Origin: Gammaproteobacteria bacterium
GTDB taxonomy: Bacteria > Pseudomonadota > Gammaproteobacteria > Steroidobacterales > JBCCMA01
Assembly: GCA_045106455.1 (NCBI GenBank)
Contig: JBGCEL010000004.1
Coordinates: 6,434-70,433 of the forward strand
Length of the DNA stretch: 64,000 bases
Direction of reading: 5' to 3'
In this document: one piece after another, positions 4,741 through 40,904 of the stretch
Layout of the letters: the number at the start of each line of letters is the position of its first letter
Numbering within the stretch: position 1 is the stretch's first letter
The notes under the pieces: generated by a model
Seen by the model: the letters and a program-made list of their open reading frames with translations, nothing else
Told to the model about the DNA's origin: nothing
The model's database searches: none
Made by a program: the position numbers and the translations under genes

Positions 4741-4844
4741 TGGGAATGACTCCACAGTTTCGGCAGTGGTGTTCATTTGGCGGGATAAAATGGCGTCCGA
4801 CGTGTCGCCATTGCGGCGATTCAAGGATCAAATGTGGCAGAAGT

Positions 4845-12291: not shown

Positions 12292-12323
12292 ATCGATCCT
12301 TTTTTATTCAAGATTTGCGGCGA

Positions 12324-15620: not shown

Positions 15621-15722
15621 CACCTTCCCCTCCAGACGTTGCCATATGGGGTTGGAGTCAATGCCCGATTGCTTTGCCCCCCCGGGCAACGGTAAGGTCG
15701 AAAAAAAGTCATCGGCAGCGCA

Positions 15723-19760: not shown

Positions 19761-19772
19761 AATCAGCACACG

Positions 19773-25227: not shown

Positions 25228-25469
25228 GAAAAAAAAATCCTGAGGCCTGAGCACGGCAGTCTTAACGTAATTCGGCCGAAGTATAACGCAACCCACGCGG
25301 TAACAATTTTCCATATTGTGCAAATTCTTGTGGCAAAGCCCGCGGCCATTGACGCCAATTTGACCTGTGTCCCAATTCCCCCACGACATTATTCCCATCC
25401 GGCCACGCACGCTTTAGATTGATGGAGATCCACCGCTAACGGCCTAACGACGTTCAAACCGACCCCTCT

Positions 25470-27227
25470 ATGACGAAAGACTGTGCAACTCGGTGGCTCT
25501 CTTTGCTTTGCAGTATGATCCCCGGCGTTCGCACCGCGTATTATGTCAATGCGGCAACACCTACTTGTGAGCAGCACATTGTCGCCAGCTACCCAGATGG
25601 CGCCACACCAAACGACGCTATTGAAGCGCTTGTACGCGACACACTGGTTGCGCAAGAGGAAATTGCTCGGCCCGTGCCGGGCGTGGCTATCCCGTCCAAA
25701 AGCTGGGCACTGGCACGACTCGTCGCGGTCGCCAACAGCGTGGGCGTCGTTGCACTTGAATTCGATGACACGACACAAGAGCAGCTAGCCGCTATCGGCC
25801 AACTCGTCGCGTGGGCTGGCCAATGGGCCACACTCGCACAGCCCGCTGCCATGGCGGTCAACCGCCACGAGCCAGACCTGAACCTGGCAAACGTGCTGCT
25901 GGAAGCCGCCACACTTGATCAAGCGCTCGCTAAGGCCTGTCGACACTTGTCCGGGAAGTTTGGCGGCACTCGTGTTGCCATCGGGCTGCACGCGGCGGAC
26001 GCCGTTTCTCTTGCCGCCGTCTCGGATCGCGCAGCATTCGACCGCCGCACGCAAAGCGCCGACCTGTATACGGTCGCGATGAATGAAGCGTTTGATCAAA
26101 GCCGTATTGTCGCCCACCCGCACACGGACACTACCGTTGCCGCCGTTAGCGTCGGCCACCGCAAGCTCGCCGATGCCGAGCGCTCCTGCGCGTGCAGCGT
26201 GCCACTTGGCACGAGCGGCGATCCGGCAGGCATCGTCACGCTGCTGCGCGCTGAATCCAAACCATTCACCGATGACGACATGGCGATGTTGCAACCGTAC
26301 GCCGCTTTGCTCGGGCACATCATCCACGTTCGCCGTCGGGCTGAGCAGGGACCTTGGCGTCGCCTGCGTCAGTCCATGCAGAGTTGGCGCAAACATTGGC
26401 TCATGGCCAATGCCCCGCGTCGCCGGATGGCGGTGGTCGGTGCCGCGGCCGTCATTGCGTTTCTGGCTCTGGGCTCTGCCCCGTATCAGGTGGGCGCACC
26501 GGCGGTTCTGGCCGGCACTTCGGAGCGCACCCTCGCCGCTCCGGTGGACGGTTACTTAAGCGAGGTGCACGTGCGCCCCGGCGCACGCGTTGCGAGTGGT
26601 CAAATTTTAGCCACGCTCGACCCGGCGCCACTGGAACGCCAACGCCGACAGTTGCAGGGCCAGCGTAGCCAACTCAACGGCGAGTACAACGTCGCGCTGG
26701 GCAAATTAGACGGTGCCGCGGCCCGCATTTTGCAGTCTCAACTCGCCCAAACTCATGTCCAGATCGAACATCTGGATGCGCAGCTCTCAAGACTCAATAT
26801 CACGGCGCCATTCGACGGCCTGGTTCTTGATGGCGATCTGATGCACGCCGCGGGCGGCCCCGTCGCACTCGGCGACACCCTTTTCCGACTGACCCCGAAC
26901 GGGGGCTATCTGGTGCGCTTGCACGTCTCGGCGAGCGACGTCGAAGCGATTGGCATTGGCGCACGCGGCCGCCTAAAACTAGCGGCACTGCCCAATGCGC
27001 AGCTGGACATTGAAGTGGTGCGAATTAACGGCATCGCACAAACCGTTGACGGCCGCAGCGTGCTGGAGATGGAAGCCACCGTACACGGCAATCAGGACTA
27101 TCTGCGCCCCGGCATGAAAGGCGTTGCACGGCTCGATGCGGGGCACGCCCGAGTTCTGTGGATCTGGACGCATTCAATTTGGCAACGCATGAAGCTCTGG
27201 TTGTGGCGCTTCAGCCCGGTGGCATAA
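25470..27227 (+). CDS. GAF-domain / TM / HlyD-type periplasmic adaptor fusion protein
   Basis: The cytoplasmic N-half ends in a typical GAF C-terminus (SVPLGTSGDPAGIVTLLRAESKPFTDDDMAMLQPYAALLGHII). One TM helix (MAVVGAAAVIAFLALGSAPY). Adaptor motifs: PVDGYLSEVHVRPGARVASGQILATLD, a coiled-coil hairpin, and ITAPFDGLVLDGDL. Confidence 0.7.
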   Translation: MTKDCATRWLSLLCSMIPGVRTAYYVNAATPTCEQHIVASYPDGATPNDAIEALVRDTLVAQEEIARPVPGVAIPSKSWALARLVAVANSVGVVALEFDDTTQEQLAAIGQLVAWAGQWATLAQPAAMAVNRHEPDLNLANVLLEAATLDQALAKACRHLSGKFGGTRVAIGLHAADAVSLAAVSDRAAFDRRTQSADLYTVAMNEAFDQSRIVAHPHTDTTVAAVSVGHRKLADAERSCACSVPLGTSGDPAGIVTLLRAESKPFTDDDMAMLQPYAALLGHIIHVRRRAEQGPWRRLRQSMQSWRKHWLMANAPRRRMAVVGAAAVIAFLALGSAPYQVGAPAVLAGTSERTLAAPVDGYLSEVHVRPGARVASGQILATLDPAPLERQRRQLQGQRSQLNGEYNVALGKLDGAAARILQSQLAQTHVQIEHLDAQLSRLNITAPFDGLVLDGDLMHAAGGPVALGDTLFRLTPNGGYLVRLHVSASDVEAIGIGARGRLKLAALPNAQLDIEVVRINGIAQTVDGRSVLEMEATVHGNQDYLRPGMKGVARLDAGHARVLWIWTHSIWQRMKLWLWRFSPVA

Positions 27228-29351
27228 ATGCACGCAACCCACACACCCACGCCAACTACCTTTACGCCGTGCCTGACACGCGATGCCAGCGTGCATCGTC
27301 ACAGTTATCGCGGTACGCCGTGGTACATCGTGCACGACGGCATGACCGGACGTAGCCTTCATTTGGCCGCCGGTGCGTGGCGCGTTATCGACGCGATGGA
27401 CGGGCGCCGTTCGCCAGAGGAAATACTCGCGTACTTGCAACGCAACGGTGCACCGGTGCAGGCGAACGATGTGCACAGCGTCTGCGCCGAGTTACTGCGC
27501 GCCGGTCTCCTGCAAGGGACGACTTGTGAACAGGCGGATTCGCTGCAACTGGCAAGCCAGCCGCCCCCCCGCTGGAAACAGTGGCTAACCTCCCCACTTT
27601 CTATTCGCCTGCCGCTGCTTAACCCGCAAGTCTGGCTCGACAAACGTATTGCCAACGTAAGGCCCCTGTTCACGTCCACCACGCTGTGGCTGTGGCTGTC
27701 CGTCGTGATCACGGCCTGCTTTATGGCCGTCAGTCACCAAAACGAGCTGACCGAACGCGTCGCCTCGACCGTGATCAGCCCGTACGGCGTCATCCTGTTT
27801 TTGAGCGTTTACGCAGTAATGAAGTCACTGCACGAACTCGCCCATGCGTTTAGCATCCGGGCCTTCGGTGGCGCCGTCAACGAAATGGGCCTGGTGTTTC
27901 TGGTGTTCATGCCGGTGCCCTACGTCGATGCGGCCGCTGCCACCACGTTTGTCAACAAACGCCAGCGTATGCTCGTGAGCGCGTCGGGCATCATGGTAGA
28001 GGCATTTATTGGCGCGATCGCGCTGATACTCTGGACCAAAATCGAGCCCGGCGTGGTACGCGAAATCTGTTTCGCGGCGCTCATTATCGGTGGCGTCTCG
28101 ACGCTTTTGTTCAACGGCAATCCGTTGCTGCGCTTTGACGGCTACTACGTCTTAAGCGACGCTCTGGAAATACCAAATCTCGCCACCCGCTCGCGCCGCT
28201 ATTTGCACTATGCGATACAGCGGTACATGTTGCGCATGAAAGACGCTATTACTCCGGTTGTCACGCCCTCCGAACGCCTTTGGTTTGTGCTGTACGGCGT
28301 GCTGTCATCCATTTACCGTCTGATCATCCTTGCATTCATTGTCTGGTTTGTATCGCGCCAGGTGCCGTTGGTCGGCTACGCACTGGGCGCCTGGGTGTTT
28401 GTGTCGCAGTTGTTGCTACCAGCATTGCGTGGGTTTACCAGCGTCGTGACGCGGGCGCGCAACGCCACCAACTCGCGGCAAGTGTTATCCCGACTTAGCG
28501 CTACAACGCTCGCCTGCGGTGTCGTGACATTCGGCTTGCCAATGCCGGCGTGGAGCAGCGCTGAGGGCGTGATCTGGATGCCGCCAGAGGCGCAGGTTCG
28601 GGCACCCGTTGACGGCACGGTGGCCACAACACTGCTGGGCGACGGGACCAGCATCGTGCCCGAACAAGCCATTGTGCAGCTCGAAAGCCCGTCGCTTGTG
28701 AATGACGCGCGCGTGATAGCCGAACAGCTCAATGAAGTCCGCGCCCGCCAAAACCTTGCTCTGTTTCGCGATCGCAGCGCACTACGCAGCGTGGCTGAAA
28801 ACCTGCACCAGACCGAAATGCGTCTGACAGAAGCCCAACAGAAAGTACGTTCACTAACGCTAAAGAGTCCGGTCGCCGGTGCGCTGCATTTTTTCGATGA
28901 GAACACGCTCGCCGGGCGCTACGTGCGCAAGGGCGAGGTTCTCGCGTACGTGCGCGATGATCAGGCGCCTATTGTGCGCGTGGTCGTGAAACAAACGCAG
29001 ATCGAAAAACTACGCGACCCGAATACGAATGTTCGCGTGCTCATACCCGGTTATTTGGATCGGCAGTTCGCCGCCACTTTGGTGCAAGAGGTTGGGGCCA
29101 CGACTAACACGCTACCCAGCGCCGCATTGGGTAGCGCGGGCGGCGGCCGCATCGCCACAAATCTGACCGATGAACACCGTCGCACAGCGGCCGAGGACGT
29201 ATTTATCCTCGATGTCCAGCTGGCACCGAACGCACCCGACGTGGCGATCGGCACGCGCGTCTACCTACGCTTCGACTACGCCCCGGCTCCGTTGGCTCAG
29301 CAAATGCTGCGCAGCCTGCGCCAGCTCACGCTCGGTGGCAGCCGTGCGTAA
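27228..29351 (+). CDS. PqqD-like domain / site-2-protease (M50) membrane domain / HlyD-type adaptor tri-fusion
   Basis: TAAATG junction with the upstream gene. N-terminal WYIVHDGMTGRSLHLAAGAWRVIDAMDGRRSPEEILAYL...LLRAGLL is PqqD/RRE-like. Polytopic region carries HELAH (HExxH, 27831-27845) and NGNPLLRFDG (S2P NxxPxxxxDG, about 28113-28142). C-terminal adaptor region (VRAPVDGTV..., coiled coil, LKSPVAGAL). Confidence 0.75.
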   Translation: MHATHTPTPTTFTPCLTRDASVHRHSYRGTPWYIVHDGMTGRSLHLAAGAWRVIDAMDGRRSPEEILAYLQRNGAPVQANDVHSVCAELLRAGLLQGTTCEQADSLQLASQPPPRWKQWLTSPLSIRLPLLNPQVWLDKRIANVRPLFTSTTLWLWLSVVITACFMAVSHQNELTERVASTVISPYGVILFLSVYAVMKSLHELAHAFSIRAFGGAVNEMGLVFLVFMPVPYVDAAAATTFVNKRQRMLVSASGIMVEAFIGAIALILWTKIEPGVVREICFAALIIGGVSTLLFNGNPLLRFDGYYVLSDALEIPNLATRSRRYLHYAIQRYMLRMKDAITPVVTPSERLWFVLYGVLSSIYRLIILAFIVWFVSRQVPLVGYALGAWVFVSQLLLPALRGFTSVVTRARNATNSRQVLSRLSATTLACGVVTFGLPMPAWSSAEGVIWMPPEAQVRAPVDGTVATTLLGDGTSIVPEQAIVQLESPSLVNDARVIAEQLNEVRARQNLALFRDRSALRSVAENLHQTEMRLTEAQQKVRSLTLKSPVAGALHFFDENTLAGRYVRKGEVLAYVRDDQAPIVRVVVKQTQIEKLRDPNTNVRVLIPGYLDRQFAATLVQEVGATTNTLPSAALGSAGGGRIATNLTDEHRRTAAEDVFILDVQLAPNAPDVAIGTRVYLRFDYAPAPLAQQMLRSLRQLTLGGSRA

Positions 29352-29400
29352 GACCTTCACACACATAACGCTCCGCCAGAACACTCTGAGAAACACCACG

Positions 29401-30807
29401 ATGCATCAGTCATTTTTCGCCCCACTCGTTTGCGCCATCATGACCGTTGCTGTGGGCAGCACAACGCTTGCCGACGAGTTCGATGCGCACACCCTGAACT
29501 GCGTGATCCTGCCGGACGAGGTCGTCGACATCAGCAGCTCGGTGCCCGGTGTGCTCGAGCAAGTATTGGTGGAGCGCAGCGATAAGATTCAAAAGGGCCA
29601 GGTGCTGGCACGGTTGGAGGCAAGCGTAGAACAGGCGGTCACAGCGTTGGCGGAAGCACGTGCCACGGCCATCTCTGAACTGCGACTACGCCAGACCGAG
29701 CTCGGCTACGATGTTCAGCATCGTGATCGACTGTCTGAATTACAGCAACGCCATGTCGCATCATCGCAATCTTACGAAGACGCGCAGCGCACGGCAGAAG
29801 CCGCGCGCTGGCGACTCAAACTTGCCGAGGAGCGGCGCGAAGAGGCGCAGCTGGATCAACGCCGTGTCGCCGCCCTGCTCGCACAAAAGACCATTCGCAG
29901 TCCCATCGACGGCGTCGTTATCGCGCGGCATCACTCGGTGGGTGAACATGTTAATAGCGAGGCCGTGGTAACGGTCGCCAGGCTCGACCCGCTGCGGGTA
30001 GAGGTGCTTACGCCGATTGACATGTTCGGCAAAATTCAGCCGGGCATGCTGATGGACGTGCGTGCTGAGATCGACCCACAGACGCGGCACACGGCCGAAG
30101 TCGTGGCCGTGGACCCGGTAGCCGATGCCGGCAGCGGCATGTTTGCCGTTGAGCTCACGTTGCCCAACCCGAATAACGCGCTGCCTGCCGGCATCAAGTG
30201 TTACAGCGAACTGAGCCCAGGCGAGCAACCCTCGCCGACCGCCGCGCCCGCATCCACGGTGGCAGATGCACCCAACCCTGTGACGCCCTCGCCCACCCCC
30301 GTGATCACGGCAAACTTTGATGCCAGCGAACTGTGCCGTGTCTTTCCGGCTGTGACCGAACCCGAATCCATCTCGCGCTTGATGCGCACTGCGGTTGTGC
30401 TGGGTGGACGCGCGCAGAAAATACGCGCCGATGTTGCGGTAGCGAACGGCTACATTGTTGCCTCGCCCCGAGCCGACGCAGCGCAGCTTGAGCAGTGGCA
30501 AGAAACCTTAGGCGCGGCGGGCGAAAACGACACCGCCGTAATGCAACGCGGCGATTTTCGTCAGCGACTGACGATGGGCACCTACAACGGACCGCGCTCG
30601 GCAGAGCGCCGTCGCGATCAAATTGCCGCGCTTGGCGTAAGCGCAGAGGTGCTGCCACGCATGCGCAGCGCCACGGCCTGGAAGATTGAGGTGCAGCTTC
30701 CACAGCCGCTGCCAGCGCCAACCGGCACCCCGCCGCTGGCCGCCTTCATGGAACGCTTTAACAGCGAAGCCGTGCCGTGTGCATCCATTCGCGCGGCGAG
30801 CCTCTAA
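29401..30807 (+). CDS. membrane-fusion (RND/HlyD-type) periplasmic adaptor with Pro-rich linker and C-terminal SPOR-like domain
   Basis: Start at ATG 29401 (signal/anchor MHQSFFAPLVCAIMTVAVGSTTLA). Adaptor motifs VVDISSSVPGVLEQVLVERSDKIQKGQVLARLE and IRSPIDGVVIARH. PSPTAAPASTVADAPNPVTPSPTP linker. The C-terminal RLTMGTYNGPRSAERRRDQIAALGVSAEV is SPOR-like. The track start 29170 is an over-extension. Confidence 0.7.
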   Translation: MHQSFFAPLVCAIMTVAVGSTTLADEFDAHTLNCVILPDEVVDISSSVPGVLEQVLVERSDKIQKGQVLARLEASVEQAVTALAEARATAISELRLRQTELGYDVQHRDRLSELQQRHVASSQSYEDAQRTAEAARWRLKLAEERREEAQLDQRRVAALLAQKTIRSPIDGVVIARHHSVGEHVNSEAVVTVARLDPLRVEVLTPIDMFGKIQPGMLMDVRAEIDPQTRHTAEVVAVDPVADAGSGMFAVELTLPNPNNALPAGIKCYSELSPGEQPSPTAAPASTVADAPNPVTPSPTPVITANFDASELCRVFPAVTEPESISRLMRTAVVLGGRAQKIRADVAVANGYIVASPRADAAQLEQWQETLGAAGENDTAVMQRGDFRQRLTMGTYNGPRSAERRRDQIAALGVSAEVLPRMRSATAWKIEVQLPQPLPAPTGTPPLAAFMERFNSEAVPCASIRAASL

Positions 30808-30814
30808 CGTACTC

Positions 30815-33800
30815 ATGACACGCAAACGATCATCCAGACGGCCCGCAAACGCACTGTCGTTTGCGGTCGAGGCGCTTGAGCCGCGGCTGTTGCTGTCGGC
30901 GGACTGGGCGCTGGGCCTGGCGCCGGATGATGTGCGCGATGATCCGTTCGATCTGGATGCCGCCGCGGCCCATCGAGTGTTACGTGCACTCGGTTCTGAA
31001 GCCCCGTTGCCCGCCTCGATGGATCTGGAACATTTTATGGCACTGCAGCCGGCGACGCCGGAATTTGCCAATGATCAGTCCTTGGCAGAGAAGCCGTCGC
31101 GCACCGATTTTAGACTGCTATCCGGCGATGCCCCGCAAAGTGTTGACGACGGCTATTCGGTAAACGAAGACGAATCGATCACGTTCAACGCCGTGTGGTT
31201 CGACCCGGATTGGATCGCACGCCGTGAACTCACCATCGACAACAGCGCCAGCGCCACTGATCTCAACGACTTTCCGGTATTGATCACGCTCGACGCATCG
31301 CGTATCGACTACAGCCTTACCGAGGATGACGGCGACGATCTGCGCTTCACGGATGACGCCGGCAATCTGCTGGATTACGAGATCGAGCTGTGGGACGAAA
31401 GCGGCACGTCTTACGTATGGGTTCGAGTGGACAGCATTACGGCCGGCTCGACGACCGAGAGTATTTACATGTATTACGGCAATTCCAGCGCCGGCGAAGG
31501 GCAATCGCCCCGGGACGTCTGGGATGCCAACTATCAGCAAGTCCAGCATTTGGAGGAAACAAGCGGCAACTACGATGATTCCACCGCCAATGGTGTTGAC
31601 ATCAGTCTTAGCGGCGGCGACCCCCACGGCGACGACATGTTCATCGGTCCCGCCCATGCTTTTGACGGCACCAACGAACTCGACAGCCAACCTGAAGCAC
31701 TCGATGACAGTCGCGCTGCCGGCACAATTTCCATGTGGGTGGAATTTGATGAGCGCTCCGGCGTGATCAACCTGCTGACCTCGGACGTCGCGCGCGATCA
31801 AGCGATTTGGACTGACGACGGTACGTTTCACGTAGCAATGGCCACGAACTTGTTTACCTTTAGTAACCTGTCCGGAGGGTCGATCGAAAACGGCTGGAAT
31901 CAGGTCGTATTCACTTGGGACAGCGTCACCGGCGAACAGGCGCTTTACGCCAACGGCCTATTGGTCGATCAGGTATCGGTGGGCGCATGGGACCCGGATG
32001 GCGTGGACGGCAACACCATCAACATCGGTGGCGCCGCCGACGCCTTTCTGGGCTTTTTTCCCGAGCGCGACGGCCTCCAGGGCGGCATCGATGAAATACG
32101 CGTGTCCGACGTGGCGCGCTCGGCCGATTGGGTGGCCGCACAGTTCGCCACCATCAACGACAATTTTATTAGCTATGGTGCCGAAGAAGGGGCTGCCCGC
32201 GGCGTGCTGGAAAACGACACCGATGCCGAGAACGATGTGCTGGCCGCGGTCCTTGAAACCGGTCCGAGCAATGCCGCATCGTTTACGCTGTTTGCCGACG
32301 GCAGTTTCGAATACACGCCGCAGGCCAATTTCGTCGGCACCGACTCGTTTACCTACCGCGCCGATGACGGCAGCAGTCTCTCGGCGGCCGCGGCGACGGT
32401 CACCATCACCGTCAACGCGGTGAACGACGCCCCGACGTTCACGCTTGGCGGCGCACAGAACGTGAACGAAGATGGCGGTGGACAGAGTGTGGCGAATTTC
32501 TCCGTCGCCTCTGCGGGAGGCGGCGCTGATGAGTCGGGCCAAACGTTTACGTACATCGTCACCGGCGACAACCCGGGCCTGTTTTCGGTAGCACCGAGTA
32601 TTGATGCGGACGGCACACTTACCTACACGCTGGCACCTAACGCCGTTGGCAGCGCCAACCTGACCGTGCAGATGTCCGATTCCGGTGGCACGGCCAATGG
32701 CGGTAGTGACGCCGCTGTCGCGGAAAACTTTGTGATCAACGTTGCTCCCGTAAACGACGCACCTTCGGCCACGTTACTTGGCAACCAAACGGTCGTCGAG
32801 AATGCCGGCCCGCAGGCAGTGGCAAACTTTGCCGCCGGTTTTACGGGTGGTGGCGCGGATGAGAGCGGGCAAAACTTGTCTTATACGGTCATAACCGGTT
32901 TTCCCGCGCTGTTCAGCGCTGCTCCGGCCATCTCTCCCGACGGCACGCTGACGTTCACATTTGCCGACGGGATGTCTGGCTCCACCACGGTGGACGTGAT
33001 TGTCAGGGACGATGGGGGCACTGCGAATGGCGGTCAAGACACCTCTACCACCTACACCTTCACTCTGACCGCGACGCCGGCGTCGGTACCGCCGACGGCG
33101 CTGAACATGGATCAGACACTCAGCTACATTGAAGACAACACGCTCGACCTCGCGAACATCATTGTCAGCGACGGCGATGCCGGCGATGTGATTACCGCAA
33201 CGCTCACGCTGGCCGATCCATTGGCAGGTAGTTTGAGCACGCTCAGCGGCGCAGGCGAAACGTACGTAGCGGCCACGGGACGCTGGCGCATCGTGGGCAC
33301 GCAAGCCGAAGTGAACACCGCACTCGCCAACGTCACGTTCGTCCCGGCTGCCAACTACGCGCTGGATACGAGCATTGCAGTGAATATTCAAGATGCGGAC
33401 GGAACCGGCCCTGCGGATGGGCTGATCGAGCTTAACGCCCTGGCCGTTAACGATGCGCCCTCCGCAACGCTCGCAGGCGACGTCAACGTTTTGGAGAACT
33501 CAGGACCACAAACCATCGCCGGATTTGCGGTTGGATTTGTCGGTGGCGGTACTGATGAGGCCGGTCAAGCACTCACTTATATAGTGAGCGCTGATCAGGT
33601 CAACATGTTTAGCAGCGGCCCGGTGATTTCCTCGGACGGCACCCTGAGCTTCACCACCGCGGACAACGTTACCGGCAGTGCAACCGTTCGCGTGCGCGTG
33701 ATCGACGATGGCAACACCGCCAATGGCGGGCAAAATCAGTCGGTCGACTACACGTTCAATATCATCATCAATGATCGGCCCGATGCACCGACGACCACCA

Positions 33801-36550
33801 ACATGAACCAAGTCGTGCTGTATACCGAAGACGGCGGCCCGGTCGACTTTGCGGACATGGTGGTGAGCGACGACGATCCGGGCGAGACGATTACCGCAAC
33901 GCTAACACTCGCTGATCCCACAGCCGGCGTGTTGACCACGCTCAGCGGTTCGGGCGAGACCTACAATGCCGTTGCCGGTCAGTGGCAAATCACCGGCAAC
34001 GCAGCCACCGTGAATGCGGCGCTTGCCAATCTATCGTTCGCGCCCGGTGCAAACTACGCGCTCGATACGAGCATCAACGTGCGTATTGTCGACGCCGCCG
34101 GCACTGGCCCGTCCGACGGAACGATCGCGCTGCAGGCGATCGCCATCAACGATACACCCCAGGCCATCTTTGCCGGCGATATTGCCGTGGACCAGAACGC
34201 CGGAGCTCAAACTTTTGCAGGCTTCGCGACACCGTCCCCCGGTGGTGGCACAGATGAACTCGCACAAACATTTACCTATACCGTCACCGTGGATAACGGC
34301 GCTTTATTTAGCGTTGCGCCCGCCATCACGCCCGACGGTACGCTCACGTTTACGGCCGCGGACAACACTTCCGGCAGCACCACGGTACGCGTGCGCGTCA
34401 CCGATAGCGGCGACACCGTCAATGGCGGTCAAGACCAGTCGATCGAATATGTGTTCCAAATTGACATCGGCGCACCCACTGCGACCAACTTGAATCAGGT
34501 CGTCAACTACATTGAAGACGGCGACCCGGTTGGGTTTGATGCCATTGTCGTAAGCAATGCTGCCCCGGATGAAACCATTACAGCGACACTCAGCCTGAGC
34601 GATCCGGCCGCCGGATCGCTGTCCACTGCAAGCGGTTTGGGCGAGACATTGACCACCTCAGGACAGTGGCGAATCACCGGCACCGTCGCACAGGTCAACG
34701 CCGCACTTGCCGACGTCACGTTTACGGCTGCGAACAATTACGCACAAGACTTGAGCATTGTCGTGCGCATCACCGATGCGGCCGGAAACGGGCCTGCTGA
34801 TGGTTTGCTGGCCCTCCAGGCAACCGCCGTCAATGATGCACCACTGGCAAGCCAGCTCAATCAAATCCAGAATTTTCTGGAAGACACCATTGACGTGGCG
34901 CTCAACGACATTGTGGTCAGTGATGTTGACGCCGGCGACGTTGTTTCTGCCACGTTAACCCTGGACAACCCGGCGGCAGGACAGCTGTCGAGCTCGAGTG
35001 GCAACGGCGAATCCTATGACGCACGCAGCGGCACCTGGCGCGTCAGTGGTAGCACGGCGCAAGTGAGTGCCGCCCTGGCCGCTGTCGTGTTCGAACCGCT
35101 GAATGATTTTGCCGGCAGTGTCAGCGTACGCACACAGATTGTGGATCAAGACGGTGCCGGGCCCGATGCCGGCGTCATTACTCTGCAGGCCACGGCCGTA
35201 AACGATGCACCAACCGTCGCCGTTTCCGGCGATTTGGTGGTTGACGAAGACGCCCCGGCCCAACGCATAGCCGGCTTTGCAAACGTGCTAGACAACGGCG
35301 GCGCGGACGAGAGCGGTCAAACCATCGTCTACAGTCTCAGCACCGACAATGAAGATTTATTCCGGGTCGCACCCTCCATCAGCGAGACGGGCGAACTCCA
35401 TTACGAGCTTGCCGCCAACGCCAACGGCACCGCCAACATCACCGTCGTGGCGCGCGATGATGGCGGTCGCGACAACGGCGGCGTCGACACGGCTCCTACA
35501 CAGCAGTTCGTGATTCAGGTCAATCCTGTCAACGACGCGCCGGAAGCAACCAGCCAGTTTGTGGTCGCGCCGCCCTCTGGCATTGTGGTGCTGTCAGCGG
35601 CTTCGTTCGGATTTACCGATCCCGCCGATGGCGATACCTTCGAAGGCGTATTTATTACAAGTTTGCCAGCGCAAGGCGAACTGTTGCTCGACGGTCAACC
35701 CGTGGCCGCCGGCGCGTTCGTTTCGGCCGCCGATCTTGTCGCAAATCGGCTGTCGCTGTCGTCGTTTGCCATACCCGGCGATAGCCTGCTACTGAGTTTC
35801 GATTTTCTAGTCCGTGACTCGGGTGGTACCGCCGATGGCGGCACCGACGTGGCGGTCAAGACCAGCACGATTACGATATCTGTCGACGTACCCAAGACGG
35901 ACGGCACCACGAACACAACACCAGCCGTGATCTCAGAAGCCGACGCCTCGGCCGACACGACCACCGCAACGGTCGTCAGCGACGCGGATCAGTCGACCGA
36001 TGAACAGCGGTCTGCTCCCGCGATCGACCTGAGCACGCCGGCAAGCCCTGCAACCCTTGCGCCCACGGTCGCCGTCACAACGCCGGTGACGAGCCTGCTC
36101 GAGATTCCCCAAGCCGCCGATGCAACCCAAGCGGCGAAGACTTTCAGTCCGGCGGTATCGCGTGTGCTGGTTTCACTGCTCGAAAATGTCCGCTCCGGCA
36201 TTGGCGATGCCACTGTCATCCAGACCACGGCCACCACGACGCTTGCGGCCGTCACCGAGATACTCGTGGAGCAACTTAGCGACCTGCGCGACGAAACCGG
36301 CGCCGAGCAGGCCTCGGAGGAACTGGTCATCATGCAGTCCAGCGCGGTGGCCTTCGGCTTGTCGGTAGGCTACGTCTCCTGGTTGCTGCGTGGCGGTGTG
36401 TTGGTCAGCAGCATGCTTACCTCCCTGCCGGCCTGGCGCTTTATTGATCCATTGCCGATTTTCTCGGGCGTACGACAAGGTGACGAGGACGAAGAGTCGT
36501 TGCAGGATATCGTCAGCGCCGACGAGCACGACACAGGACCACAAGCGTGA
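30815..36550 (+). CDS. 1911-aa repeat adhesin-like protein: LEPR-XLL N-terminus, DUF2341 + LamG-like, about 100-aa VNDAP-delimited repeats, C-terminal membrane anchor
   Basis: ATG 30815 lies 8 nt after the upstream stop. N-terminus MTRKRSSRRPANALSFAVEALEPRLLLSAD. DUF2341-like block (RRELTIDNSASATDLNDFPVLITLD...YVWVRVDSI...IYMYYGN). LamG-like block (...IDEIRVSDVARSADWVAAQF). Ten repeat modules follow. C-terminal hydrophobic segment AVAFGLSVGYVSWLLRGGVLVSSMLTSLPAW, then an acidic tail. Confidence 0.8.
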   Translation: MTRKRSSRRPANALSFAVEALEPRLLLSADWALGLAPDDVRDDPFDLDAAAAHRVLRALGSEAPLPASMDLEHFMALQPATPEFANDQSLAEKPSRTDFRLLSGDAPQSVDDGYSVNEDESITFNAVWFDPDWIARRELTIDNSASATDLNDFPVLITLDASRIDYSLTEDDGDDLRFTDDAGNLLDYEIELWDESGTSYVWVRVDSITAGSTTESIYMYYGNSSAGEGQSPRDVWDANYQQVQHLEETSGNYDDSTANGVDISLSGGDPHGDDMFIGPAHAFDGTNELDSQPEALDDSRAAGTISMWVEFDERSGVINLLTSDVARDQAIWTDDGTFHVAMATNLFTFSNLSGGSIENGWNQVVFTWDSVTGEQALYANGLLVDQVSVGAWDPDGVDGNTINIGGAADAFLGFFPERDGLQGGIDEIRVSDVARSADWVAAQFATINDNFISYGAEEGAARGVLENDTDAENDVLAAVLETGPSNAASFTLFADGSFEYTPQANFVGTDSFTYRADDGSSLSAAAATVTITVNAVNDAPTFTLGGAQNVNEDGGGQSVANFSVASAGGGADESGQTFTYIVTGDNPGLFSVAPSIDADGTLTYTLAPNAVGSANLTVQMSDSGGTANGGSDAAVAENFVINVAPVNDAPSATLLGNQTVVENAGPQAVANFAAGFTGGGADESGQNLSYTVITGFPALFSAAPAISPDGTLTFTFADGMSGSTTVDVIVRDDGGTANGGQDTSTTYTFTLTATPASVPPTALNMDQTLSYIEDNTLDLANIIVSDGDAGDVITATLTLADPLAGSLSTLSGAGETYVAATGRWRIVGTQAEVNTALANVTFVPAANYALDTSIAVNIQDADGTGPADGLIELNALAVNDAPSATLAGDVNVLENSGPQTIAGFAVGFVGGGTDEAGQALTYIVSADQVNMFSSGPVISSDGTLSFTTADNVTGSATVRVRVIDDGNTANGGQNQSVDYTFNIIINDRPDAPTTTNMNQVVLYTEDGGPVDFADMVVSDDDPGETITATLTLADPTAGVLTTLSGSGETYNAVAGQWQITGNAATVNAALANLSFAPGANYALDTSINVRIVDAAGTGPSDGTIALQAIAINDTPQAIFAGDIAVDQNAGAQTFAGFATPSPGGGTDELAQTFTYTVTVDNGALFSVAPAITPDGTLTFTAADNTSGSTTVRVRVTDSGDTVNGGQDQSIEYVFQIDIGAPTATNLNQVVNYIEDGDPVGFDAIVVSNAAPDETITATLSLSDPAAGSLSTASGLGETLTTSGQWRITGTVAQVNAALADVTFTAANNYAQDLSIVVRITDAAGNGPADGLLALQATAVNDAPLASQLNQIQNFLEDTIDVALNDIVVSDVDAGDVVSATLTLDNPAAGQLSSSSGNGESYDARSGTWRVSGSTAQVSAALAAVVFEPLNDFAGSVSVRTQIVDQDGAGPDAGVITLQATAVNDAPTVAVSGDLVVDEDAPAQRIAGFANVLDNGGADESGQTIVYSLSTDNEDLFRVAPSISETGELHYELAANANGTANITVVARDDGGRDNGGVDTAPTQQFVIQVNPVNDAPEATSQFVVAPPSGIVVLSAASFGFTDPADGDTFEGVFITSLPAQGELLLDGQPVAAGAFVSAADLVANRLSLSSFAIPGDSLLLSFDFLVRDSGGTADGGTDVAVKTSTITISVDVPKTDGTTNTTPAVISEADASADTTTATVVSDADQSTDEQRSAPAIDLSTPASPATLAPTVAVTTPVTSLLEIPQAADATQAAKTFSPAVSRVLVSLLENVRSGIGDATVIQTTATTTLAAVTEILVEQLSDLRDETGAEQASEELVIMQSSAVAFGLSVGYVSWLLRGGVLVSSMLTSLPAWRFIDPLPIFSGVRQGDEDEESLQDIVSADEHDTGPQA
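32420..35890 (+). repeat. ten tandem ~110-120-aa modules of three types (order A-A-B-A-B-A-B-B-A-C) within the adhesin gene
   Basis: Most junctions carry VNDAP. Type A consensus: ...ENxGxQxxxxFAxxxxGGGxDExGQxxTYxV...LFSxxPxIxxDGTLTFT...GSxxVxVxVxDxGxTANGGxD. Type B consensus: ...NxxQxxxYxEDxxxxxxxIVVSDxDxGxxITATLTLxDPxAGxLxTxSGxGETY...WxIxGxxAxVNxALAxxxF...DAxGxGPxDGxIxLxAxA. Boundaries are approximate. Confidence 0.7.
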
Positions 36551-39051
36551 AACGACCGTCAGCACGCACAATGGTAACCATCGCCATTACTTTGGTGATG
36601 CTCAGCCTGTTTTTATTCAGCACCGTGCTTGGCATGTTCCCCGACATCGAAAAGACCCGCCGTGAAGGGCGTGTGACCGTCGCTGAGCTCATGGCACTTG
36701 GCCTGATTAATGACATCGGTAACGAACGAGAAGATCGCATCGGACAAACGCTGCGTTTTGCCGTAGAGCGAAATTCTGACATCGAATCAGCCGCCGTGCG
36801 CGACGCCAGCGGCCTTGCCATTGGCACCGCCGGTGACCACGCGGGCTACTGGACCCCCATCCAAAGCGGGCAATCGAGCGTGGCGCAGATCACTGTGCCA
36901 ATCATGCGCGGGAACACACAATGGGGTTCACTCGAACTGCGTTTCCGTGAGCACCAGCGACCGGGCGTGGTGGGTATGCTTGATCGGCCTATCGTGCGCT
37001 TTGCACTGTATCTGCTCGTTGGCGGGTTCTTTGCCACCTATTTTATTTTGGGTCGCATGCTGCGCGCTTTAGATCCCACGCAGGCCGTGCCCTCGCGCGT
37101 ACGCTCAGCGCTGGACACCATAAGCGAAGGCCTCATCGCCATCGACACCAAAGGTCAGGTGATGCTTGCCAACGCCGCCTTCGCGACCCTCTGCGGGCGC
37201 GATGCCGATGCACTTGTGGGCATAAGCGTCGCAGATCTTGCGTGGGTTGGCGATGAAGACGGTCAGGTTAAGCATCCGTGGGAGCGCACGCTGCAAGACA
37301 GTCAGGCCGTTATTAACGAATCGATGACGCTCAAAGATAAAGACGGGAAGCAGCGCACGTTCCTCGTTAACTGCTCACCGGTGCTCGGCGGCAACGGCAA
37401 AGCACTTGGTGCACTGATTGGTCTTGGCGACGTTACCGAACTCGAGGAAAAAGAAATTCAGTTACGGCGCTCCAAAGAAGAGGCCGAAGCCGCCAACCGC
37501 AGCAAAAGCGAATTTTTGGCCAACATGAGTCATGAAATTCGAACGCCCATGAACGCTATTCTGGGCTTTACGAACCTGCTCAAGCGCGGCTACGCCAAGA
37601 ACGCACAGCAGCGTCAGGAATATCTGCAGACCATTGAGTCCAGTGGTTCGTTCTTGCTCGAACTTATTAACGATTTGCTGGATCTGTCCAAAATCGAGGC
37701 CGGCTCGCTGACCATGGAGACCCTCGAGTGTGAGGCGCATTTGGTCGTTCGCGACGTCTGCACGACGCTGCAGCTGCGTGCGCAGGAAAACAACGTTGAC
37801 CTCTCATTTGCCGTCACCACAGAAATACCCCAGCACATTCAGACCGACCCGACGCGTTTGCGGCAGATCGTGACAAACCTTCTGGGTAACGCCATCAAAT
37901 TCACCTCGGACGGCACCGTGGATGTCACCGTGGCACTCGATGCCGACGACCCTACCCTGCTCGCCGTGGCCGTCACCGACTCGGGCGTGGGCATGACAGA
38001 GGACCAAACGAAGGCGATTTTCGAGCCCTTCGTGCAGGCTGATTCATCCATTACGCGACGCTTTGGCGGCACGGGTCTCGGCCTGTCCATTAGCCGACGC
38101 TTCGCACGTGCACTGGGTGGCGACATTTATGTCGACAGCACGGCCGGCGTTGGCAGCACCTTCACAGCGCGGATTGCCACCGGCAATACCGAAGGTGTGC
38201 CTCGCATCTCGCCCGAAGCAGCCTCCCAGGCCGTGCACATCGAAGAGGCGGTTTCCACGTCAAGCCTGCATCTGCCCAATGCGCATGTGCTGGTGGCAGA
38301 CGACAACAAACAGAATCGCGATCTGCTGCGTCTGGTGCTGGAGGAGCACGGTTTGCGTGTGACAACCGCCGTTAATGGCGAGGAGGCCGTTGCGGCTGTG
38401 TCCGAAAGCATGTTCGACATTATATTGATGGACGTGCAAATGCCGGTAATGGACGGCTACGAGGCCACACGCGCCATACGATCCAGCGGTATCGAAGTGC
38501 CCATTATTGCCCTTACGGCTCTGCTCATTGGCGAGGCTCGAGACGCACTGCTTGAAGCAGGCTTCGACGCCTTCTTCGCCAAACCCATCGATGTAGACGG
38601 CCTGCTTGAACTTATCGCCGAGAAGCTCGGCAGCCTGCCCGCGTGCACGCTGCAGCAGACCCCGCGCGACGGGCCGACCCCGGATACCGAATCGACCGCG
38701 CCCATTGCGTCGCGTTTGCCAGTACACGACCCGCGCTACCGGGACATTGTGCAAGAATTTGTCGACCAGCTTGATGACACGATCAAACAGCTGCGCGATG
38801 CGTTTGATGTGGGCGATCACAAACGTCTGGCTGAGGTAGCGCACTATCTCAAGGGCGTTGCTGGCAGCATGGGCTATCCCGACTTCACCGCGCCTTGCAG
38901 AGATTTAGAGCACGCGGTCACCTCACGACACGATGCCAATATTCGCGCCAGCCTGAGCGTCATCGACGCACTCGCCGCGCGCGTCGTTTTGAGCGACGTC
39001 TCGGTTGCGGTGACGGACAGCCGCACAGCTTCAGTCGCAGCAGCACAATAA
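36547..39051 (+). CDS. hybrid sensor histidine kinase (2 TM, PAS, HisKA, HATPase_c, REC, HPt)
   Basis: GTG 36547 overlaps the adhesin stop (GTGA). H-box SEFLANMSHEIRTPMNAILGF. G-boxes DSGVGM and GGTGLGLSISRRFA. Receiver VLVADDNKQNRDLL...DIILMDVQMPVMDG. HPt-like AHYLKGVAGSMGY. Confidence 0.9.
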   Translation: MKRPSARTMVTIAITLVMLSLFLFSTVLGMFPDIEKTRREGRVTVAELMALGLINDIGNEREDRIGQTLRFAVERNSDIESAAVRDASGLAIGTAGDHAGYWTPIQSGQSSVAQITVPIMRGNTQWGSLELRFREHQRPGVVGMLDRPIVRFALYLLVGGFFATYFILGRMLRALDPTQAVPSRVRSALDTISEGLIAIDTKGQVMLANAAFATLCGRDADALVGISVADLAWVGDEDGQVKHPWERTLQDSQAVINESMTLKDKDGKQRTFLVNCSPVLGGNGKALGALIGLGDVTELEEKEIQLRRSKEEAEAANRSKSEFLANMSHEIRTPMNAILGFTNLLKRGYAKNAQQRQEYLQTIESSGSFLLELINDLLDLSKIEAGSLTMETLECEAHLVVRDVCTTLQLRAQENNVDLSFAVTTEIPQHIQTDPTRLRQIVTNLLGNAIKFTSDGTVDVTVALDADDPTLLAVAVTDSGVGMTEDQTKAIFEPFVQADSSITRRFGGTGLGLSISRRFARALGGDIYVDSTAGVGSTFTARIATGNTEGVPRISPEAASQAVHIEEAVSTSSLHLPNAHVLVADDNKQNRDLLRLVLEEHGLRVTTAVNGEEAVAAVSESMFDIILMDVQMPVMDGYEATRAIRSSGIEVPIIALTALLIGEARDALLEAGFDAFFAKPIDVDGLLELIAEKLGSLPACTLQQTPRDGPTPDTESTAPIASRLPVHDPRYRDIVQEFVDQLDDTIKQLRDAFDVGDHKRLAEVAHYLKGVAGSMGYPDFTAPCRDLEHAVTSRHDANIRASLSVIDALAARVVLSDVSVAVTDSRTASVAAAQ

Positions 39052-39095
39052 ATGCTGCACGCCTTATACACGGAACCGCAGGCGGAGAACTTCCA

Positions 39096-40904
39096 ATGAC
39101 AACGCGCCCAACAACGGATGGAACACTGGAGGTCGCCGCCGCGAGCAAAAGCGCCGGCGCCGACCCTAAGATTATGATCGTGGACGACGCTTCCATGACC
39201 ATCCGAATTCTGCAAACGTTTTTGGAAGATGCCGGCTATCGTCGCTTCGTGACCACCAGCGATTCGACCCAAGCCATTGAGCTGGTCGAGTCCGAGCGAC
39301 CTGATGCGTTGCTGCTGGACCTGCATATGCCAAGTGTTAGCGGCTTTGATATTTTGGAGCAAATTCGCGCGAGCTTCGACATTCGCCACACTCCCGTTAT
39401 TATTCTCACCGCCTCCGATGACGGCAACAGCAAACTAAAAGCACTGGAGCTTGGTGCTACGGACTTTTTGGCCAAGCCGGTCGATACCAGCGAACTGGCA
39501 CTGCGCCTGCGCAATACTCTGGCCACCAAAACCTATCAGGATCGACTGACGTACTACGATCCGCTCACCGATTTACCCAATCGAAAACTGCATAGCGAGC
39601 GACTCTCGCGCAGTCTCGTCCGCGCATTTCGAAGTAGACAACGCGGCGCCATGCTGCACATCAATCTCGACCGCTTTCGCCGCGTAAACTCCTCGCTCGG
39701 CCACGCTGCCGGCGACCATCTGCTGCGGCACACGGCGCAGCGACTCGATCGAATTGTGCGCCAACTCGACAACTCCGTGTCGTTGTCCATGGAACCCGGT
39801 ACACCCACGGCCGCTCGTTTGGGTGGCGACGAATTCGGAGTTCTACTGCCCACCGTCGAAAGCAACGATGCCGCCCGCGCCATTGCAGAGCAGATCCTCG
39901 GTGCCATCACCAAGCCGGTGGAATGGAAAGGCAGCGAAGTGGTGGTTACCGCCAGCATTGGCGTCGAGACGTTTCCAGACTCCGCCACCACCACGCAGCA
40001 GATTATTCGCAACGTCACGCTGGCGGCCGCTCGCGCCCGGTCGCTGGGTCGCAACCGGCATGAAGTATATTCGCCGCTGTCCGAGGCCAGCGTGTCGCAG
40101 GAAGTGCATCTTGAAAGCGATCTGCATCGCGCCCTGTCGCGCAACGAGCTGCGCTTGCACTATCAACCCAAAGTGGACCTGGCGACGGGCAATATCGGCA
40201 GCGCCGAGGCACTATTGCGCTGGGAGCACAAAACCCGCGGTCTGGTGAGTCCCAGCGAATTTATCCCGCTAGCCGAACAAACCGGTCTCATCGTGCCGTT
40301 TGGCACCTGGGTCATCCAAACCGCCTGCGCGCAAATCCGGCAGTGGTGCGATGACGGCCTGCCGCCGCTGCCGGTGGCGGTAAACGTCTCCAGCCTGCAG
40401 TTTGCCAACGGTGACCTGTTATCCATCGTGGCCGACGCCATTACCACCGCCGGTATCGCGCCTGCGCTGCTCATTTTGGAGCTCACCGAAACCGCCGTTC
40501 TAAAAAACACCGAAGAGACGATTAGCACTCTGCACGCGATTCGCTCGCTCGGGGTCAAACTGTCGCTGGATGATTTCGGAACCGGTTACTCGTCACTGTC
40601 GTATCTTGAGCGACTGCCAATCGACCAACTAAAAATCGATCGGTCGTTTGTCGAGAAAATTGAAGACGGCAACACCGCGCCCATCGTAGACGCCGTGATC
40701 GCCATGGCCAAGAGTCTCGGCATGCACACCGTGGCGGAGGGTGTCGAAGAACCCTGTCAGGTGGACTACCTCAAGGCCCGCCACTGCGATCAATATCAAG
40801 GCTTTTACTTTTCGCGCGCCGTAGACCCCGTGTCGTTCGGCAACCTGGTGGCCGAACAAATGAAGCGCGAGCGGCCGCAAGTCAGCACGGCGCAAGCACG
40901 CTAA
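39096..40904 (+). CDS. response regulator with REC-GGDEF-EAL domains (c-di-GMP turnover)
   Basis: Start re-picked at ATG 39096. REC IMIVDDASMTIRIL...LLLDLHMPSVSGFD. Intact RLGGDEFGVLL. EAL-domain motifs SAEALLRWEH and SLDDFGTGYSSLSYL. Confidence 0.9.
   Translation: MTTRPTTDGTLEVAAASKSAGADPKIMIVDDASMTIRILQTFLEDAGYRRFVTTSDSTQAIELVESERPDALLLDLHMPSVSGFDILEQIRASFDIRHTPVIILTASDDGNSKLKALELGATDFLAKPVDTSELALRLRNTLATKTYQDRLTYYDPLTDLPNRKLHSERLSRSLVRAFRSRQRGAMLHINLDRFRRVNSSLGHAAGDHLLRHTAQRLDRIVRQLDNSVSLSMEPGTPTAARLGGDEFGVLLPTVESNDAARAIAEQILGAITKPVEWKGSEVVVTASIGVETFPDSATTTQQIIRNVTLAAARARSLGRNRHEVYSPLSEASVSQEVHLESDLHRALSRNELRLHYQPKVDLATGNIGSAEALLRWEHKTRGLVSPSEFIPLAEQTGLIVPFGTWVIQTACAQIRQWCDDGLPPLPVAVNVSSLQFANGDLLSIVADAITTAGIAPALLILELTETAVLKNTEETISTLHAIRSLGVKLSLDDFGTGYSSLSYLERLPIDQLKIDRSFVEKIEDGNTAPIVDAVIAMAKSLGMHTVAEGVEEPCQVDYLKARHCDQYQGFYFSRAVDPVSFGNLVAEQMKRERPQVSTAQAR

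Follow-up and report, generated by a model that had tools for sequence, protein, structure and literature searches.

A 64,000-nt stretch of a gammaproteobacterial genome (contig JBGCEL010000004.1 of assembly GCA_045106455.1; hereafter the window) carries a cluster of six co-directional plus-strand open reading frames (ORFs) at 25470-40904, which we lean toward reading as a single module: a dedicated machine for envelope export and leader processing of the giant repeat protein encoded by the fourth gene, plus a signalling pair. In order, the genes encode an adaptor of the membrane-fusion protein (MFP) type preceded by a GAF domain and a transmembrane (TM) helix (G1); a PqqD-like RRE domain (recognition element of ribosomally synthesized and post-translationally modified peptides, RiPPs) joined to an M50 protease domain and a second MFP adaptor (G2); a third MFP with a SPOR-like extension (G3); a giant protein with an N-terminal LEPR-XLL motif (G4); a hybrid kinase (G5); and a REC-GGDEF-EAL protein (G6). 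Two observations stand behind this reading. G1-G3 are a SecA-less subtype of a widespread GAF-MFP / RRE-M50-MFP / (SecA_DEAD) / MFP cassette, and that cassette is syntenic with LEPR-XLL giants across phyla.

The six genes are tightly packed (Table 1). G1 and G2 meet in the junction TAAATG (27225-27230), read directly from the sequence; G2 and G3 are 49 nt apart (29352-29400), G3 and G4 7 nt (30808-30814), and G5 and G6 44 nt (39052-39095), while G4 and G5 overlap in GTGA (36547-36550). The 3' end of G6 abuts a convergent acyl-CoA-ligase-type gene. An earlier annotation made from the letters alone (the sequence-only reading) had announced seven genes, but its own list and its five junctions also give six; its 8-nt gap between G3 and G4 is 7 nt, and the remaining packed junctions all hold on re-reading. 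The domains it had named stand for the GAF/HlyD, M50-type/HlyD, MFP, LEPR-XLL repeat, hybrid kinase and REC-GGDEF-EAL proteins, but the window's own SPOR and PqqD matches fall below Pfam thresholds, and LamG, which it had proposed for checking, gave no match in a profile scan of G4. A scan of the operon for promoter and terminator consensus stayed at chance level, was uninformative and showed no internal terminator. The window's six-gene order recurs in two related loci, L001 and L006, with 51% and 63% identity, respectively, between their G2 proteins and that of the window; the arrangement thus goes beyond chance.

Table 1. Features of the six-gene cluster, with nucleotide coordinates in the window
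Feature	Coordinates	Strand	Description
G1	25470..27227	+	585 aa; GAF, one TM helix, MFP/HlyD adaptor
G2	27228..29351	+	707 aa; PqqD-like RRE/winged helix-turn-helix, seven-TM M50/site-2-protease, MexA/MacA-type adaptor
G3	29401..30807	+	468 aa; N-terminal signal/anchor, RND_mfp-type adaptor, linker, SPOR-like C-terminal extension
G4	30815..36550	+	1911 aa; LEPR-XLL giant repeat protein, presumed cargo and adhesin
G4 leader	30815..30913	+	basic N-region MTRKRSSRR, then LEPR-XLL motif FAVEALEPRLLLSADW
G4 C-terminal module	36128..36547	+	helix LSDLRDE, hydrophobic stretch, acidic tail DEESLQDIV
G5	36547..39051	+	834 aa; hybrid histidine kinase PAS-HisKA-HATPase_c-REC-Hpt
G6	39096..40904	+	602 aa; REC-GGDEF-EAL

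How widespread is this cassette, and how typical is the window's version of it? More than 4900 homologues of G2 (~715 aa) were found, and scans of one-genome-per-species contigs and of metagenome contigs each yielded more than 580 confirmed loci. Our survey covered 82 non-redundant genome-derived loci and an independent set of 80 metagenome loci, ~160 together. The order GAF-MFP / RRE-M50-MFP / SecA-like ATPase (~660 aa) / short MFP is present in 63 of the 82 genome-derived loci. The ATPase matches SecA only over the two nucleotide-binding domains and the preprotein cross-linking domain between them (NBD1-PPXD-NBD2), and scores 583 bits against a SecA cutoff of 814. In a phmmer search, a SecA-like query had no match in any part of the 64-kb window. 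The absence of a pump that the sequence-only reading had stressed is therefore real in the window but a property of its sub-clade only, since most relatives encode the ATPase between the M50-MFP and the last MFP. In a neighbor-joining tree of G2, SecA-less cassettes fall into deep separate clades (the window with L001 and L006; L024; L078, L057, L058 and L084 with a Granulosicoccaceae group; L091; and L041), and all but one of the remaining loci form a single SecA+ clade. The missing ATPase thus marks an old, stable subtype, and we rejected a recent deletion of the SecA gene because SecA-less cassettes form such deep clades. No closer relatives of the window's clade were present in the metagenome scan made with a single-protein query; in the metagenome profile scan, the best identity was 42%.

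The neighborhoods of these cassettes are sparing in conventional transport genes. Among the 25 most frequent Pfam families of 144 non-giant neighbors of the genome-derived loci—each family common to at least two neighbors—there is no ABC, RND or MFS transporter family and no SecY-type family; OEP was found in 3 of these neighbors, SapC in 6, and GGDEF, EAL and REC domains in 4-5. Neither did the scanned neighbors contain recurrent modifying enzymes. SapC-family genes (PF07277), otherwise familiar from S-layer type I secretion loci, recur beside or inside the cassette (L003, L013, L026, L030, L050, L066, L076, L077, L083 and others). Outside the cluster, we scanned the remaining ORFs of the window that are 200 aa or longer against Pfam, except those nested in or overlapping larger scanned ORFs; the scans contained neither an ABC, RND or MFS transporter nor OEP/TolC or a LapG-like protease, and neither LapG nor LapD homologues were present in them. 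Because genes for outer-membrane factors (OMFs) are commonly unlinked, the absence of TolC at the locus says little.

Do the cassettes travel with giant genes? Among 25 genome loci whose flanks reach 7 kb or more on each side, 15 have a neighboring ORF of at least 1400 aa, and at many further loci the giant ORF extends beyond the fetched flank. This linkage replicates in the independent set of 80 metagenome loci. Across the ~160 loci, the LEPR motif lies within the first 150 residues of 36 of 1038 ORFs of at least 200 aa (0 in shuffled N-termini), and all 36 start no more than 2.5 kb from a cassette gene, at a median of 109 nt. Nearly every intact cassette-linked giant with a visible N-terminus carries it: the evidently real giants of L001, L006, L014, L031, L036, L039, L052, L053, L079 and L085 open with a basic stretch and the motif, and giants without a recognizable motif are few (L022, L065, L101 and L057, the last starting inside a DUF4347-like region). 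In canonical loci, DUF4347 comes after the LEPR motif. The sequence-only reading had coupled the adaptors to a giant repeat protein, and the coupling survives the question of whether the trio usually occurs without such a neighbor, since the cassettes mostly adjoin giant ORFs.

LEPR-XLL synteny spans Gammaproteobacteria, Alphaproteobacteria, Betaproteobacteria, Desulfobacterota and Myxococcota and includes both cassette subtypes. In the SecA-less loci L094, L095, L122, L171 and L091, the gene after the third adaptor opens with the LEPR motif, and the leader of L095 (...ILEPRVLLAADWAAGLAP) is nearly identical to the window's. On plasmid pDSM107133_a (RS18295-RS18320) of a cultured Roseobacter, Pseudosulfitobacter sp. 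DSM 107133, a 38-kb gene of ~12,700 codons, whose N-terminus reads ...HLETFEPRVLLSADL, sits between a divergent short MFP gene and genes for a DUF3467 protein, a GAF-MFP, a "PqqD family" M50-MFP and a "translocase." The DUF3467 protein of this plasmid (L175, 13681-14022; 113 aa), encoded between the giant gene and the GAF-MFP gene, could be a cargo chaperone. A reverse test starting from DUF4347 proteins was partial, with mostly fragmentary gene calls: two of six LEPR-positive proteins on long contigs adjoin a cassette (one SecA+, one SecA-less), a third adjoins a short adaptor gene at a contig end, and neither of two LEPR-negative cyanobacterial proteins adjoins one. One LEPR-positive DUF4347 protein (L087, 4260-4928, minus strand) lies ~5 kb from a SecG gene, probably by coincidence.

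What do the giants share at their N-termini? G4 matches the LEPR-XLL model (NF012209, LEPR-8K) at residues 16-33 with 23.6 bits (cutoff 17), followed by DUF2341 at residues 172-243 and by tandem-95, Big_9 and cadherin-like repeats. Forty-one leaders, 38 of them cassette-adjacent and 3 from reverse-test loci without a cassette in view, give the consensus [LF][FLVI]ExLEPR[LVI]L[LFY]SAD; the 29 residues that precede the motif core contain 5.5 K/R on average. By hydropathy, the G4 leader is not hydrophobic enough for a Sec signal, which we rejected; a Tat signal was likewise rejected, as the G4 leader lacks the Tat consensus and most leaders lack the twin arginine. The profile scan of G4 gave no HemolysinCabind match, that is, no RTX repeats. 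Profile scans and hydropathy thus bear out the sequence-only reading in its claim that G4 has neither an RTX signal nor a Sec signal peptide. The same leader occurs in SecA+ and SecA-less loci, so its receptor is most simply a component that both subtypes share, such as the RRE-M50-MFP or the GAF-MFP protein. The RRE of G2 is, we infer, the obvious candidate.

In G2, the predicted PqqD-like RRE/winged helix-turn-helix covers residues ~14-100, the seven-TM M50 domain ~150-437 and the periplasmic adaptor ~440-700. Residues 14-410 match the NCBIfam intramembrane metalloprotease daptide_HExxH (E 3e-47, below the equivalog cutoff), and the adaptor part matches HlyD/HlyD_3 profiles. The zinc-site motifs are present as HExxH (H202/E203/H206) and NxxPxxxxDG (N296-D304), and residues H202, E203, H206, N296, N298, P299 and D304 are invariant across 22 relatives; as judged from these residues, G2 retains an intact site-2 protease (S2P) active site. 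Both hydropathy and an AlphaFold2 (AF2) model show seven hydrophobic helices, an odd number that would leave the RRE-like domain cytoplasmic and the adaptor periplasmic. In the model (mean predicted local distance difference test 81), residues 20-91 form three strands and then three helices, and the chain also has a polytopic helical core and an adaptor resembling MexA, MacA and AcrA; a Foldseek search with the whole model matched MexA, MacA and AcrA, with adaptor structures only among the 50 best matches listed. Family assignments of the N-terminal half gain from relatives: PqqD was matched at E≤0.01 in 12 of the 22 and Peptidase_M50 was detected in 17, and a profile of the G2 family gave a weak match (E 0.017) to the PqqD structure 3g2b. 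At E≤1, a sequence search of the Protein Data Bank gave no M50 relative of known structure. The best family matches of this half are RiPP-associated (daptide_HExxH, YydH/LiaK and the ApyI RRE), at 161 bits against an equivalog cutoff of 300 and 42.7 against 225 for the RiPP peptidases, and RefSeq names relatives of G2 "PqqD family peptide modification chaperone."

The other two adaptors differ from G2 and from each other. G1 has a cytoplasmic GAF domain (residues ~147-286), a single TM helix predicted by hydropathy at 320-338 with RRR just before it, and a periplasmic membrane-fusion/HlyD adaptor (~343-559) with a helical hairpin of ~60 aa; it matches Pfam GAF_2, GAF, HlyD_3, HlyD_D23 and Biotin_lipoyl_2 and NCBIfam RND_mfp, and an orthologue is found in essentially every related locus. 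In G3, the adaptor part (residues 32-291; RND_mfp 121.7 bits, cutoff 94.9) has a hairpin of ~95 aa and is followed by a Pro/Thr/Ala/Ser-rich linker. The best SPOR match lies at nt ~30475-30654, and SPOR was matched in 9 of 15 orthologous G3 C-terminal extensions (best 1.7e-9).

At its other end, G4 carries a conserved element for which no Pfam or NCBIfam model matches. Its last ~90 residues recur with strong conservation in the cassette-linked giants of L001, L006, L039, L053, L057 and L067, with a consensus core GLSVGYVxWLLRGGxLLSSxLSSLPAWRFIDPLP and an acidic DESLE tail; in G4, the core of the hydrophobic stretch is GLSVGYVSWLLRGGVLVSSMLTSLPAWRFIDPLP (nt ~36362-36457). A search of 1.84 billion cluster representatives with this module gave 3784 matches at E≤1e-3 and 1203 at E≤1e-10, and in all of the best 150 matches listed, in proteins of up to 3777 aa, it lies at the extreme C-terminus. 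Residues S79, G81, Y82, R88, G90, L97, P101, W103, F105, D107, P108, L109, P110 and L125 (numbered in the 140-aa query) are invariant, and the module is helical in the AF2 model. It may serve as a membrane hairpin anchor or as a second recognition element. Many cassette-linked giants do not have it. Giants upstream of SecA+ cassettes at L034, L046, L061, L073, L081, L150 and L166 end in another conserved pattern, in which A-G-x-x-G-W leads into a K/R-rich stretch and a (S/R)W(R/S)W(D/E)G motif; this pattern may be an alternative C-terminal element of the SecA+ subtype.

Are the two signalling genes part of the same system? G5 has TM helices at residues 10-28 and 154-172 with a periplasmic loop of ~125 aa between them, and G6 has intact signatures read by eye (RLGGDEFG, EALLRW and DDFGTGYSS), its best NCBIfam match being to cyclic di-GMP (c-di-GMP) phosphodiesterases (DibA). 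A kinase with the architecture of G5 follows module-bearing giants in the window, L001, L006, L057 and L174; a truncated kinase match comes after the module-bearing giant of L053, and a GGDEF-EAL protein follows that of L067. Genes for c-di-GMP turnover or hybrid kinases lie near 11 of 13 SecA-less cassettes vs 6 of 60 SecA+ cassettes (Fisher p = 2e-7), a comparison of cassettes with enough flank in which the loci are not phylogenetically independent, five coming from a related Granulosicoccaceae/Chromatiales clade of the G2 tree. L091, an independent SecA-less locus, has REC-GGDEF-EAL, REC and kinase genes upstream and a PAS-GGDEF gene after the giant. The c-di-GMP and two-component linkage proposed from the window alone is thus conserved for the SecA-less subtype. 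At L020, L027, L037, L043 and L045, all from metagenome-assembled genomes of Granulosicoccaceae/Chromatiales, a GGDEF-EAL protein of ~1080-1120 aa directly follows the SecA-less cassette, and no giant lies within 7-9 kb. At L174, in a 9.1-Mb genome (GCA_964656655.1), the giant gene is split over calls of 2066+, 3003 and 154 aa and has the module of G4 at its end; an 851-aa PAS-HisKA-HATPase-REC-Hpt kinase and a REC-kinase come after it, and no cassette lies within the 10 kb viewed.

How might such a module work? The PqqD-like RRE of G2 would bind the basic and ExLEPRxLxSAD leader of G4 in the cytoplasm, as happens with RiPP leaders, and the M50 domain would cut the leader off at the cytoplasmic face. 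S2Ps act on N-in segments near the cytoplasmic face, and the M50 proteases of the YydH and daptide types are leader peptidases; these are the grounds for assigning leader removal to the M50 domain. The three different adaptors may assemble a periplasmic conduit that docks to an unlinked TolC-type channel, with the SPOR-like tail tying G3 to peptidoglycan. The unfolded repeat protein would reach the surface N-terminus first, anchored by its C-terminal hydrophobic module, which would remain in the inner membrane. The GAF domain of G1 and a G5/G6 phosphorelay with c-di-GMP turnover could couple display or release to signalling. Energy in the window's clade might come from housekeeping SecA, an unlinked paralogue or the proton-motive force.

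Several points weigh against this picture. Its support is entirely genomic inference, all of it computational. No protein-conducting inner-membrane channel was identified at the locus, no nucleoside triphosphatase (NTPase) is encoded there, and we know of no M50 protease that acts as a channel. Individual domain calls in the window are marginal: PqqD (PF05402) in G2 reaches 17.7 bits (E 0.0047; gathering score 23.4), the Pfam Peptidase_M50 (PF02163) score of G2 itself falls short of E 0.01, and SPOR (PF05036) in G3 reaches 13.9 bits (E 0.07; Pfam gathering score 21). The linkage has gaps in both directions, with LEPR-XLL proteins at L087, L092 and L093 that have no cassette in view and cassettes with no giant within 7-9 kb at L032, L048 and L056 (Methylobacterium) and at L020, L027, L037 and L045 (Granulosicoccaceae). 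Some linked giants (L002, L036) carry RTX repeats, which are usually associated with type I secretion systems (T1SSs). Three of four cassette genes were barely expressed in exponential-phase Methylorubrum extorquens AM1 (Kamneva, Poudel & Ward 2015, PMC4452313).

The idea of export and/or proteolytic release that the sequence-only reading had put forward is nonetheless directionally supported by comparative genomics, once corrected for the number of genes, the SecA-type motor of relatives and the 2015 precedent. A broader proposal follows, which we advance tentatively as a whole. LEPR-XLL may be the N-terminal targeting or leader signal of a distinct export pathway for giant surface proteins in diderm bacteria, made up of an RRE-S2P-adaptor fusion, two more adaptors (one regulated by GAF) and, mostly, a truncated SecA paralogue as the motor. 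In the SecA-less branch, the new C-terminal membrane module might tether the cargo, and a pair of hybrid kinase and c-di-GMP enzyme might read the state of the cargo, possibly as a surface-sensing circuit.

The main rival places the genes after export rather than at it. G4 might cross the inner membrane by Sec or a remote T1SS, the adaptors and the SPOR tail holding the adhesin, and intramembrane proteolysis by the M50 domain of the C-terminal module or the N-terminal tag would then free it under GAF, kinase and c-di-GMP control—the logic of LapA/LapG/LapD built from different parts. We consider this combination unlikely but serious. The C-terminal module is strongly conserved and widespread, and giants that bear it repeatedly precede a hybrid kinase with the architecture of G5 (window, L001, L006, L057, L174; truncated match at L053); c-di-GMP genes are enriched near SecA-less cassettes; S2Ps are known for regulated cleavage of TM segments; and the age and stability of the SecA-less clades imply that a motor is not always needed in cis. 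Yet G4 has no Sec, Tat or RTX signal for another route, and the ATPase that most relatives encode is of the preprotein-translocase type and includes a preprotein cross-linking domain, an argument for translocation. This C-terminal module is also missing from many cassette-linked giants, and the preference of S2Ps for N-in/C-out (type II) segments makes an N-terminal leader a better fit than a C-terminal anchor.

Two further explanations rank as less likely than retention and release of the adhesin. G1-G3 could be accessory or alternative adaptors for an ABC exporter and TolC encoded elsewhere, the M50 domain merely trimming the substrate; the canonical MFP fold of the adaptors with its hairpins, the OEP genes near 3 loci and SapC near several, the RTX repeats of some linked giants and the frequent lack of linkage of TolC would all suit an ordinary T1SS. 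We nevertheless regard this as improbable, given that the ABC-exporter family is absent both from the 25 most frequent Pfam families of the 144 neighbors and from the 64-kb window, that the conserved NTPase is a SecA paralogue and not an ABC protein, and that G4 has the conserved hydrophobic module where RTX or a T1SS-type C-terminus would be expected. The element common to the cargos is N-terminal, whereas T1SS signals are C-terminal. The RiPP-associated matches and RefSeq name of G2 could instead point to a RiPP- or bacteriocin-like system of peptide maturation and export, akin to YydH/daptide peptidases with HlyD-type exporters, that adjoins adhesin genes through shared regulation only. Its neighbors hold no recurrent modifying enzymes, its scores are far under the equivalog cutoffs, and LEPR-XLL synteny over several phyla is hard to explain by co-regulation alone, so that we give this explanation very little credence. 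Dedicated export and leader processing of G4 remains the reading we favor.

Further genes of note lie elsewhere in the window. A 213-aa sortase-domain protein (2069-2710, minus strand) adjoins a 730-aa VIT and VWA protein (2632-4824, minus strand), a pair that resembles the "marine proteobacterial sortase + target" pair and hints at a marine proteobacterium as the source of the DNA. Two GH16 (laminarinase-type) proteins are encoded at 23314-25410 (minus strand) and 55221-61433 (plus strand), neither with a LEPR-XLL motif: one combines a lipoprotein-like signal (...LTAC) with an N-terminal repeat of ~95 aa present three times, and the other, 2070 aa long, has Big_12 domains. A possible three-gene set at 16127-21413 (plus strand) comprises a 966-aa CHAT-domain protein, a 246-aa protein without a family match and a 546-aa protein with a weak subtilase (S8) match. 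At 9493-15740 (minus strand), a G8 and CEMIP beta-helix protein (932 aa) adjoins a 1138-aa protein with a weak match to di-haem cytochrome c peroxidase (MauG-like).

Why would such a pathway matter? In marine and soil bacteria, giant adhesins influence how biofilms and symbioses form and how cells attach to particles. Many genomes contain annotated LEPR-XLL proteins, to none of which, as far as we know, an export route has been assigned. If our reading is right, a widespread gene set described in 2015 as having a "completely unknown" role gains a function, the LEPR-XLL tag and a new C-terminal module found in thousands of protein clusters acquire a meaning, and the known secretion machines are joined by one in which a site-2-protease fusion, usually with a SecA paralogue, replaces the type I ABC transporter. 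Cultured carriers include Pseudosulfitobacter sp. DSM 107133, M. extorquens AM1 and Neptuniibacter caesariensis MED92.

How does the cassette compare with known systems? Its core was described in silico by Kamneva, Poudel & Ward (2015, PLoS One, PMC4452313) as a locus of GAF-HlyD, Peptidase_M50-like-HlyD, secondary SecA_DEAD and HlyD/biotin-lipoyl genes, exemplified by META1p2402-2399 of M. extorquens AM1. They proposed a secretion-related role, with SecA_DEAD as the ATPase and M50 as a possible membrane component, remarked on unlinked OMF genes and called the biological role "completely unknown." The sequence-only reading had called the machine previously uncharacterized; that is so experimentally but not bioinformatically. 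The window reproduces the GAF-HlyD, Peptidase_M50-HlyD and HlyD/biotin-lipoyl families of the 2015 locus, all three matched and in unchanged order, and that locus resembles the cassette in its wide, patchy distribution suggestive of horizontal gene transfer. The window's version differs in lacking the defining SecA_DEAD ATPase and in belonging to a deep SecA-less clade. The 2015 paper has no cargo, LEPR-XLL link, RRE domain, C-terminal module or c-di-GMP link, and its text holds nothing relevant on substrate, adhesin, DUF4347 or GGDEF. The literature searched yielded no follow-up on this locus, nor the LEPR-XLL cargo link, the RRE reading of G2, the C-terminal module or the c-di-GMP-linked SecA-less subtype.

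Among secretion systems for giant adhesins, the T1SS of LapA (LapBCE) shares with the cassette the hairpin MFP adaptors, a probable dependence on a TolC-like channel and a giant repeat adhesin as cargo, and LapA/LapG/LapD shares regulation linked to c-di-GMP and a dedicated protease as a possible release switch. The window's locus, however, has three MFPs and no ABC transporter, and G4 has no RTX or C-terminal signal, the conserved cargo signal being N-terminal instead. LapG is a periplasmic BTLCP, whereas the protease of the cassette is an intramembrane M50 fused to an adaptor; G6, unlike LapD, is soluble, with an N-terminal REC in place of the HAMP/periplasmic module, and scores 119.9 bits against a cutoff of 1020. 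The accessory Sec system of Gram-positive bacteria (SecA2/SecY2), which serves giant serine-rich adhesins, likewise couples a dedicated SecA paralogue to giants with an atypical N-terminal signal, as most relatives of the window's cassette do. The cassette differs in its Gram-negative context and its three MFPs, and in lacking SecY2, Asp proteins and glycosyltransferases; its SecA paralogue is shortened (~660 aa, NBD1-PPXD-NBD2) and absent from the window's clade.

The RiPP M50 leader peptidases (daptide NF041824; YydH/LiaK NF058609) share with G2 an N-terminal PqqD-like element followed by a polytopic HExxH metalloprotease. G2 departs from them in its MFP fusion, a presumed substrate of 1900 to 12,000 aa, the lack of modifying enzymes and its sub-equivalog scores. 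Finally, the C-terminal sorting systems—sortase/LPXTG, exosortase/PEP-CTERM and rhombosortase/GlyGly-CTERM—resemble the cassette in placing a terminal tag on otherwise unrelated surface proteins and in encoding a membrane protease nearby. Here, in contrast, it is the N-terminus that bears the universal tag, an S2P serves as the protease, and the system also comprises adaptors and usually an ATPase; the C-terminal module of G4 has a layout of its own, with a hydrophobic core, LPAWRFIDPLP and an acidic tail.

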